Assembly: GCA_963693365.1 (NCBI GenBank)
Contig: CAVNZM010000009.1
Coordinates: 3,288,231-3,352,230, forward strand
Source: Amoebidium appalachense
Taxonomy: Eukaryota > Protista > Ichthyosporea
Reading direction: 5' to 3'
DNA length: 64,000 nt
Under the pieces are notes generated by a model that was given only the letters and a program-made list of their open reading frames with translations, was not told where the DNA came from and did not search any database. The position numbers were made by a program, and so were the translations under genes. Each line of letters opens with the position of its first letter. Positions within the stretch are counted from its first letter, which is position 1. This document shows, one piece after another, positions 24,001-27,000 of the stretch.

Positions 24001-27000
24001 GCTTCCCCTCCCCCAACATGTTCTCTCTGTATCCCTCCCTCCCACCCCCCACCCATCCCCGCCTAGCCCCTGCCCTCTCGATACCCGCTGCTCAAGGCAC
24101 ATGCACCACTTGTACACACACAGACACAAACACACATGCACGCCTCTACACACACACACACACACACACACACACACACACACATACACACACACACAAT
24201 AACAACCCCCCATTCCCCTACGCAGCACTTTGGCAAGAGCGGAGACTCCACTGTTCCCTACGTCTCTCTGAGCTGGGCCATGCTCTGGCATAAGAATGCA
24301 AGGTATGCAGCGTCCCCCCCCCCCCCCCCCCTCCTCCCCCTCCCCCCTCTCCCCCCTTCCTCCACCTCCCCCCCCCTCTTCCCCCCCCCCCCCCCCCCCC
24401 CCCCCCCCCTCTTACCCCCCCCCCCCCCCCCCCCCCCCCCCCCAGCAGCTGCTGTCACCACCACCACCACCATCACCACCACAACCACGACTAAAGGCGC
24501 GCGCATATTCACATACCCCGCCGCCAACACCACAAATCACCACCTTCAACACTCTGCGTATACAGATGCAGTGCTTATGCATCCGGGCCGATTATGCATG
24601 CTGGTTATACATATCTCTTATAGATACAGCTGGTACATGCAACTTATACATACTGTAACAAATAACTCTAGCACAGATCTTTAACGCGCAACCTCTTTAT
24701 AAACTTATACTTACAAGTTATACAACATATACATAGGCCACCCTGCCGGTTTTTCCCCCACAATCGACATCTCCATGTCACTACCCCCCTCCTTTCCCTC
24801 TTGAAGCAAAGAGGAGAAAGCAGGGTTCGGGTTATTTGTTAACGCCTTTCTCCTGTTGAATACCTCCCCCCCTCTCCCCCTCCCCCCTCCCCCCCCTCCC
24901 TGAGGATGGGCTCTGCTTATGACGCATACTGTGCGCATGGCTGATGTTGCATACTTGAATGTTTGCCTTTGCATGTGTCCTGCACCATGCTTCTCATCGT
25001 GTATGCGTACTTCGTACTGTGTTCCGCATTTAAACCCCCCCTGTCTTCTTTCAGAGGTGTCCTTTCAGGACAGACCACTGTGTGGAGACATCTTTACTTC
25101 CATGCAACCGGGCATGGTTGCTCTGTGTCGTGCATCTGTAAGCACATACGCGTTTTTCGCTGCACTGCATTAGTTTGCACACACATCTTCACCGTTCTGC
25201 TCACCTTGCTTGCATAAGCAACCCTGCTCGTCTTTGATCAAGACGGGTTGACCCACCCAAGTTCAGTTGATGCTGCTGTTTGAGTTGGAGCGTCGTATAT
25301 ACGCGGGCTAAGGGGTCGAAACTCAGACGCAATTGATGACTTGGGCCCTCCCTGAGGATGGGCTCTGCTTATGACGCATACTGTGCGCATGGCTGATGTT
25401 GCATACTTGAATGTTTGCCTTTGCATGTGTCCTGCACCATGCTTCTCATCGTGTATGCGTACTTCGTACTGTGTTCCGCATTCAAACCCCCCCCCCCCCT
25501 CCCCCCCCTCCCCTGCCCACTCTTCCCACATATCTCCTACCCTAGTACCCCTCTCCCCTCCTCCCCCCTCTCTATGCCGCATTCCCCTCCCTTGTCTCCC
25601 TCCCCACCGTCCCTTCCGCTCTCCCTCTCACACTTACCCCTTACCCCCTCCTTCCTCCCCCCCTTCCCCACTCTTCTTCTTTTTTTCTTTCTCTCCCTTT
25701 TTTCCTGTCCGGCTGCATTTCTCCGTTTTTTTCTATGCAACTGCAGTGACATTACGGTCAAGCATGAGCCAGCCAAGGTGATTGAATACTACGACCACCC
25801 CATAGGCAAGTGGGGGGAGAAGACAGTCCTCAGCCTCATGAACATGTACGATATAACCTCCCTCCCCCTCACCCCCTCCCCCCCCACGCCCCAAACCTTC
25901 CTCACCACACACACACACACACACACACACACACACACACACACACACACACACACACACACACACACACACACACACACACACACACACACACACAAGA
26001 ACACACACACACACACACAAGAACACACACACACACACACACACACACACACACACACACACACACACACACAAGAACACACACACACACACACACACAC
26101 ACAAGAACACACACACACACACACACACACACACACACACACACACACACACACACACACACACACACATACACACACACACACACACACACAAACTGCC
26201 CCGCTTCCCCAGTGCCCACATGAACTCTCACCATCACTTGCATTTTTGTGTGCTTGTGCATGCATACAGAGATTATGTATGGCATTATAGTTCACTTGTG
26301 TGTGCAGAATACCGGTCGATGTGGTGTTTCTGCGTGTGTATTAAGAGGTGTATGTGTGCGTGTGAGCCTGTGTGCTCTGTCTGTGTTGCTGTGAATACCA
26401 TACGCATACCAGACGTATACCACAATCATACCATTTTTCATTGCACACCGTACCACACTGTATTCCTGTCTCAAATACCATTGGTACATGATCACGGATC
26501 CTATTCTTTCCATACCAATTGGTGTTGGGCAAGACAATAATCAATCGGTCTAAAGAGAGGGTGTCTTATCGTCGAACATAGTGAGATCAAGAAAGCCTTC
26601 CAACCTCCAACCACCTGATTGGCACGGGGCCGGGCATGAGCGGGAGGGGGGGGGGGGGGGGGGGGAAGGGGGCAAGCTGGGAGGGAGGGGCGCAGGGAAG
26701 GGGGGGGCGGGGGTTGGTTGGTTTGTTGACGAGTTGCGTTCGCGTGCAACCTCCCGCCGTCCCCACAACACACACACACACACACACACACACACACACA
26801 CACACACACACACACACACACACACGTGCAGCAATGAGCCTGCCTACAGCATCTATGCAAGTAAGGACGAAAGCAGTGGCCAGACATGCACAACATCCGT
26901 CATAGAGGTATAGCCTCCTCCTCCCTCCCCCCCTCCCCGCCTCCCCCTCGCTCCCCCTCCCTCTCCCCTCCCCCCTCCTCCCCCTTCACCCCTCTCGCCC

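Follow-up and report, generated by a model that had tools for sequence, protein, structure and literature searches.

A probable self-cleaving hammerhead with a predicted split core on a poly-C-associated repeat of Amoebidium appalachense

What kind of RNA is formed by the roughly 160-nt segment at 25212-25372 of a 64,000-nt stretch of the Amoebidium appalachense genome (the whole stretch is referred to here as the window)? A preliminary description placed a covarying three-way junction here, inside a repeat family, and offered an RT-recognition signal, a new ribozyme, or an intron-encoded noncoding RNA as its identity. From the sequence, we propose that the segment is likely a self-cleaving hammerhead with its blocks in a non-circular order and its core predicted to be split between A9 and G10.1. 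The high-copy noncoding repeat that carries it is likely a non-autonomous Penelope-like element (PLE) of the Naiad/Chlamys type inserting at poly-C. We put the probability of this reading at about 0.7.

The repeat family and its genomic setting

The window contains eukaryotic DNA with many poly-C/G and CA repeats. Its plus strand carries a gene that fuses Calx-beta and LCAT domains across some 35 short exons (642-30749), with microsatellite-filled introns; the exons are mostly 90 to 100% identical to EukProt protein P0005, labelled as from Amoebidium parasiticum, an ichthyosporean. On the minus strand are a divergent, intron-containing T-box gene (32653-35050), with best relatives 40 to 45% identical, and a gene at 49135-54425 that we take to be PABPN1-like. 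An intron of the LCAT gene also holds about seven copies of a 63-nt tandem repeat (8194-8650) that are 75 to 83% alike.

The segment of interest lies within a 452-nt unit that ends in ATTCAAA followed by a C run. The unit is noncoding, with a longest ATG frame of 84 amino acids and no Pfam match, and directly 5' of it a partial unit repeats its last 148 nt. In total, the full fold is present in four copies in the window (A1, A2, B1, and B2), which also contains six fragments (A3, B3, C, D1, D2, and D3); together they amount to about 2.2 kb:

25042..25493, plus strand: A1, one 452-nt unit, sense in intron 24301-25738 of the Calx-beta/LCAT gene
24894..25041, plus strand: A3, upstream partial unit, 147/148 nt identical to 25346-25493; a partial tandem, pseudo-LTR-like, in which only the CUGAGGA block is present
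59905..60187, minus strand: A2, 98% identical to A1, 5'-truncated within P1a, core letters intact
50930..51240, minus strand: B1, complete fold, stem II GACCUA/UAGGUC, A in place of G5; lies sense within a PABPN1-like gene intron
60300..60605, minus strand: B2, stem II GGCGA/UCGCC with shifted register, C at H17, A in place of G5, and a strong competing fold
50625..50782, minus strand: B3, 5' truncation 14 nt past the predicted cut, GAAA and CUGAGGA intact
62930..63040, minus strand: C, diverged 3' fragment with a decayed core (CGGAGGA)
2993..3148, plus strand: D1, diverged copy, CUGAUGA closed by GAACA/UGUUC (compensated P1a), lacking P2, the stem II strand, and the long arm between two CCCTG
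53310..53445, minus strand: D2, diverged fragment missing part of the core; lies sense within a PABPN1-like gene intron
60650..60752, minus strand: D3, 3'-only fragment directly upstream of B2

The copies have a common 3' end and differing 5' ends, and most comprise a single unit or 1.3 units. In all six copies checked, the 30 nt on the 3' side are 67 to 97% C, against a background in which 8 to 10% of windows reach at least 60% C; the 5' flank is at least 80% C in three of the six. Copies are strung together in a single orientation (D3-B2-A2 and B1-B3). All six intronic copies are in sense: A1/A3 and D1 in the LCAT gene, and B1, B3, and D2 in the minus-strand gene at 49135-54425. The focal copy is indeed intronic, but it is an inserted repeat and not the dedicated intron-encoded noncoding RNA that had been suggested.

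D1 lacks a 128-nt segment between its two CCCTG repeats, reflecting either a template-switch deletion or a short subfamily, and two pairs of its closing stem show compensation. Elsewhere in the window, short unique stretches bounded by poly-G at one end and poly-C at the other (980-1175, 5854-6011, 47517-47670, 61093-61359, and 63029-63258) yield long false miRNA hairpin matches and may be related to poly-C-targeted insertion.

The repeat is very abundant in public runs. Run X1 contains 16,068 contigs of it, a tally that, like the summed depth of 1 to 2 million (versus 16 to 75 for long single contigs), is not a copy number. Head-to-tail joints are present in contigs of the DNA runs X1 and X3. 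No run listed as RNA was found to contain the stretch. In X19, whose RNA nature is a guess, four contigs close the 452-nt cycle, a path that tandem DNA would also give, and depth is 60 across the 452-nt joint versus 11.5 into the flank. A tRNA- or 5S-derived SINE was rejected, as there was neither a tRNA or 5S head match nor a Pol III box B. In a search for an autonomous partner, none of 324 translated stretches of the window matched an RT or GIY-YIG domain; as the partner is not seen, the Naiad/Chlamys class is one that we infer.

Fold of the segment

All the helices named in the preliminary description are borne out: a closing stem pairing ATAAGCA (25214-25220) with TGCTTAT (25366-25372), a hairpin at 25227-25247, a long arm joining CCCAAGT (25256-25262) to ACTTGGG (25339-25345), and an inner arm helix of GTTTGAGTT (25278-25286) and AACTCAGAC (25320-25328). 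Subfamily B keeps the arm as GTATCTGAGT/ACTCGGGTAC, with G-U pairs on the sense strand, also as described. The three-way junction captured the nested part of the structure and missed two pseudoknot helices, helix P1b, and a kink-turn. In A1, the elements are placed as follows:

25214..25224, plus strand: P1 5' strand, comprising P1a ATAAGCA (25214-25220) and P1b CCC (25222-25224)
25227..25247, plus strand: P2 hairpin, loop YUGAUCA, predicted insertion between A9 and G10.1
25250..25254, plus strand: stem II 5' strand GACCC, G25250 being the predicted G10.1
25256..25271, plus strand: P3a 5' strand and kink-turn bulge strand (UCA-GUU-GA-U)
25277..25290, plus strand: cleavage block, with the stem III 5' strand to U16.1 (25285), H17 = U25286, and the stem I 5' strand GGAG (25287-25290)
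25291..25312, plus strand: variable linker between stem I and stem II, 18 to 22 nt in the four full copies, with a small hairpin
25313..25329, plus strand: G block, with the stem II 3' strand GGGUC (C11.1 = 25317), GAAA (25318-25321), and the stem III 3' strand
25334..25345, plus strand: kink-turn partner strand (U-GA-UGA) and P3a 3' strand
25348..25359, plus strand: C block, with the stem I 3' strand CUCC (25348-25351), CUGAGGA (25352-25358), and the extra U25359
25360..25372, plus strand: P1 3' strand, comprising P1b GGG (25360-25362), a CUC bulge, and P1a UGCUUAU (25366-25372)

Between P3a and stem III, all four full copies have a 3-nt bulge and then tandem G.A/A.G pairs, which we take to be a kink-turn (Kt-7 or box C/D type). 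The third kink-turn pair is U.U in subfamily A and A.G in subfamily B. The P2 loop (25234-25240) contains the palindrome UGAUCA in each full copy, possibly a kissing site for dimers.

Evidence of covariation within the window is slight. In the alignment, 97.6% of 164 cells pair and three pairs change on both sides, but there are four rows, with 98% identity between two of them, the score is attained by 9 of 500 shuffles, and related sequences can reach such scores without structure. With three independent copies, the covariation is suggestive only. A2 (59.9-60.2k) had been read as converting a G-U pair to G-C in GTCTGAGTT. The G-C pair is there, but the direction is the opposite: the family has C at 25280 (in X1 and X3, about 99% of summed depth), which means that a pair was lost in the focal copy and not gained in the other. 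Eight variant places are listed within 25214-25372. None falls on a core letter, four are unpaired, one mends a pair, and two match subfamily B with a change in the partner; G>A at 25245 (16% in X3) breaks a P2 pair.

Folding stability is modest and, for subfamily A, not strand specific, with z scores of -2.0 for 25205-25380 and -2.25 for the reverse strand; the other three full copies range from -1.0 to -1.8. The Rfam check that had been proposed returned no family for the locus: covariance models, including those for hammerheads, gave no match over 25223-25372 up to an E value of 10. Short motifs of twister, pistol, twister-sister, hairpin, and HDV-like ribozymes are absent from the doubled unit. 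An HDV-like reading was also dropped by eye because GCUAAG occurs only in subfamily A and no P3 forms, as was a SECIS element, with no AAR on the 5' side.

Predicted wiring and possible activity of the proposed hammerhead core

The preliminary description had noticed CTGAGGA and CGAAAC in the segment and reported that no canonical hammerhead could be folded. Both points hold: no CUGAnGA is followed by GAAA within 6 to 40 nt on the doubled unit, and the two motifs are not incidental but parts of a predicted hammerhead core. The blocks of this core follow a non-circular order, and one strand of stem II stands apart from them. Each of the four full copies has, on the sense strand, the order stem II 5' strand, cleavage strand (GUH), GAAA, and CUGAnGA, which is S-G-C apart from the detached stem II 5' strand, and the circular block order of hammerhead types I to III is absent. 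Stem III is 9 to 13 bp long in these copies, with an A15.1-U16.1 pair, H17, and a GUU or GUC triplet. Stem I joins H17 to C3 through 3 to 4 bp, GGA(G)/(C)UCC or, in subfamily B, GGG/CCC, where position 3 changes from A-U to G-C.

Stem II is where the core appears to be split. Straight after A9, just 2 bp can form in each of the four full copies, whereas a strand about 100 nt upstream of A9 provides 5 to 6 Watson-Crick pairs. This split stem is always closed by G-C next to GAAA and varies in sequence (GACCC/GGGUC, GACCUA/UAGGUC, or GGCGA/UCGCC). After A9 and one U, the chain enters P1 (GGG/CCC, a 3-nt bulge, and the closing stem), which makes P1 and P2 predicted insertions separating A9 from G10.1. 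Variation at the free core positions (G/U at N7 and U/C at H17) is of the kind that a hammerhead permits. CUGAnGA is intact in five of the nine copies that reach it (A1, A2, A3, B3, and D1), carries G5A in B1 and B2, and is decayed in C and D2.

A first descriptor, which let the three hammerhead blocks occur in any order, returned exactly one solution per full copy (4/4), always S-G-C, and none on the antisense strand. The full descriptor found only four sites in 64 kb, the full copies themselves, and none in 20,000 shuffles each of A2, B1, and L034 (a metagenome locus described below); the descriptors were tuned after the copies had been inspected. When stem III was held fixed, 13 of 400,000 shuffles gave GAA+H and a C block with stem I, and none also gave stem II. 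The earlier suggestion of selection on RNA structure and a new ribozyme was in the right direction and is partly supported overall; an RT-recognition signal, the other role suggested for the structure, is also possible.

The same wiring recurs beyond the window. Exact family patterns had no match in metagenome or viral contigs, and a gapped, motif-only pattern gave 64 loci (5 viral and 59 metagenome). Stem I of at least 3 bp was found in one of these, a split stem II of at least 5 bp in five, and stem III of at least 8 bp in two; only L034:380-560, on the minus strand of a 734-nt metagenome contig, has all three. The other 63 were rejected as lacking the required stems, as was L065, a match in a prokaryote genome. 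L034 has the split-core wiring with unrelated helix sequences (P1, P2, II, and P3a), a 5-bp stem I, CUGACGA (N7 = C), and a 6-bp split stem II with no continuous one; P1, with its 3-nt 3' bulge, and P2 are placed as in the Amoebidium repeat, and the fold z score is -3.25. The P2-loop palindrome is absent and, unlike the full copies of the repeat with their 3-nt bulge, L034 has a 5-nt bulge and no kink-turn at that place. Profile searches barely detect it (nhmmer E value of 0.69; covariance model scores of 15.4 bits on the other strand and 12.6 on this one), and its link to the repeat is therefore by wiring and by the letters around the core. No clear gene is present in the 734 nt, and Rfam gave only a sub-threshold miRNA match.

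By eye, two Naiad consensus 3' ends also have split wiring, namely the entries before Naiad_Plae and Naiad_Ppla in supplement S5 of PMC8557442, which by metadata order would be Naiad-2_Movir and Naiad-4_Dst. Naiad_Hpol, the entry before it, and the entry before Naiad_Lpol have, also by eye, an intact C block in the order C-S-G. The Naiad ends inspected were five of 54, three of them picked by motif search, and no such core was seen by eye in the four Chlamys ends inspected.

In the computed nested minimum, the C block is hidden in a hairpin (GCCC/GGGC over CUGAGGA), possibly an off state, and cleavage is thus probably slow or protein-assisted. The hammerhead-ready nested fold lies above this minimum by 8.8 to 10.2 kcal/mol in A1, A2, and B1 and by 21 in B2, versus a stacking of stems I and II worth 13.6 to 18.1 kcal/mol with loop costs left out. 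Fast, unaided cleavage is also hard to reconcile with the intact A1, which is sense-oriented inside an intron of a gene whose spliced product is recorded. The predicted cut is not the start of any copy in the window, B3 being the copy that starts 14 nt after it. These points weigh against the hammerhead, for which a slow or protein-assisted cut after GUU at 25286 is still the most likely reading.

The spliced intron around A1 would also suit a hammerhead-derived fold that no longer cuts and is retained as a signal for binding or template recognition by a partner RT, or is merely inherited. So would the presence of G5A in both B1 and B2, which differ by 17%, and the insertion of D1 despite its missing P2-long-arm segment. 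The Poseidon PLE hammerhead, which cut only with protein present, was likewise dispensable for insertion in vitro: mutating it left insertion undiminished, and reads starting at the cut were absent (PMC11167929). We nevertheless consider a catalytically dead fold unlikely, as G5 is retained in the A family, B3, D1, and a B-type contig of X19 with CUGAGGA, and all core letters are kept in L034 and the two Naiads despite turnover of their stems. No G>A is listed at 25354 in X17 or X19; two G>A places in each DNA run lie beyond the listing, which leaves out 26 variant rows, and could represent G5A. Unlike A1 in the LCAT gene, the three sense-intronic copies in the PABPN1-like gene are predicted to be unable to cut, one carrying G5A, one truncated, and one deleted.

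It is quite improbable, in our judgment, that the segment belongs with the ordinary type-SGC hammerheads and has an unbroken C block, in which A9 and the extra U are followed by a 2-bp GG/YC stem II and the GACCC pairing is an alternative or off state. Such a stem is possible in every full copy, PLE hammerheads often have one base between A9 and G10.1 (PMC4209133), and other Naiad ends have continuous C blocks. However, L034 has the 6-bp split stem in place of a continuous one, the GGG that this stem would need is taken up in the computed fold by CCC, forming P1b, and the 5 to 6 Watson-Crick pairs of the split stem are present in all full copies. It is very unlikely that the likeness is chance and that the repeat is a structured, SINE-like one in which the nested fold and the kink-turn would serve protein binding or stability. 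Independent copies are few, the descriptor is post hoc, and the folding z scores are modest, but the shuffle tests, the independent L034 and Naiad examples, and the lack of a Pol III box B or tRNA match all speak against it.

For the split-core hammerhead, we envisage that the kink-turn bends the long arm, whose tip (GUH and GAAA) would dock at two places, the stem II strand in the junction and the CUGAGGA strand at the base of the arm. The RNA would then be cut after GUU, between 25286 and 25287, and head-to-tail multimer transcripts would give 452-nt monomers; A1, having one cleavage block, could be cut once only. A host ligase would close the monomer into a circle, and the RT-endonuclease of an unseen autonomous element would prime near the internal C7 run, its RT copying less or more than one unit. 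Priming of the partner RT at poly-G/C would explain the fixed 3' end, the variable 5' ends, and the 1.3-unit copies. A tentative and rather doubtful extension is that the active split hammerhead is an ancient, pre-animal ribozyme of N-terminal-endonuclease PLEs. In Amoebidium, the kink-turn would then be a switch, with cutting only when an L7Ae-family or element protein is bound, and thousands of sense-intronic copies would be tolerated while circular RNA templates are still made.

Comparison with known hammerheads and retroelements

Hammerhead search patterns assume that CUGAnGA runs directly into stem II. A working core split at A9/G10.1, if true, would widen the known wirings of the best-studied ribozyme and explain Naiad-type retrotransposons reported as lacking hammerheads, and its presence in a unicellular relative of animals would put the split-core design outside animals. 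We found no description of a hammerhead core split at this point in the openly accessible papers searched. Perreault 2011 reports core insertions of just 1 to 2 nt (PMC3088659), and the main text of the Amoebidium genome paper contains neither "Penelope" nor "ribozyme" (PMC11244446).

The Naiad and Chlamys PLEs show 5' truncation, partial tandems, and non-autonomous head-to-tail forms such as MRC1; Chlamys elements prefer (C)n targets, and two consensus ends read AACCCCC (PMC8557442). Canonical hammerheads are reported to be absent from them, and 18 Naiads bear the label HHR_core or HHR_half_core (PMC8557442). The Amoebidium repeat shares the 5' truncation, fixed 3' end, partial tandems, (C)n insertion, and AACCCCC-type ends, but its ichthyosporean host is absent from the main text of Craig et al. 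2021, and no coding partner was found in the window. Animal non-LTR retrozymes carry type I hammerheads, range from dimers to long arrays, and have a link to PLEs and a proposed circular RNA template (PMC7229834; bioRxiv 10.64898/2026.07.22.740005); closure of their RNA by a host ligase has been shown (PMC7229834). The repeat resembles them in its short noncoding head-to-tail unit with one hammerhead, here a predicted one, and differs in that this ribozyme is permuted and split, with no type I hammerhead, and in its poly-C target.

Among ribozymes, the counterparts are the non-circularly permuted hammerheads of types SGC and CSG, which come from metatranscriptomes, metagenomes, and one weak bacterial candidate (PMC10085705). 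Eckert et al. 2023 assume an uninterrupted block C and a linker of about 3 nt between stems I and II, and a change of G5 abolishes cleavage in their tests (PMC10085705). The repeat shares with type SGC the S-G-C order, pseudoknotted stems I and II, the core letters, and G10.1-C11.1. In contrast, its block C is split by P1/P2, its linker is 18 to 22 nt, its stem III is extended by the kink-turn arm, and its host is a eukaryotic genomic repeat. On these comparisons, we rate the Amoebidium split core as a candidate hammerhead variant, set apart from types I to III by the order of its blocks and from type SGC by the interruption of its C block.
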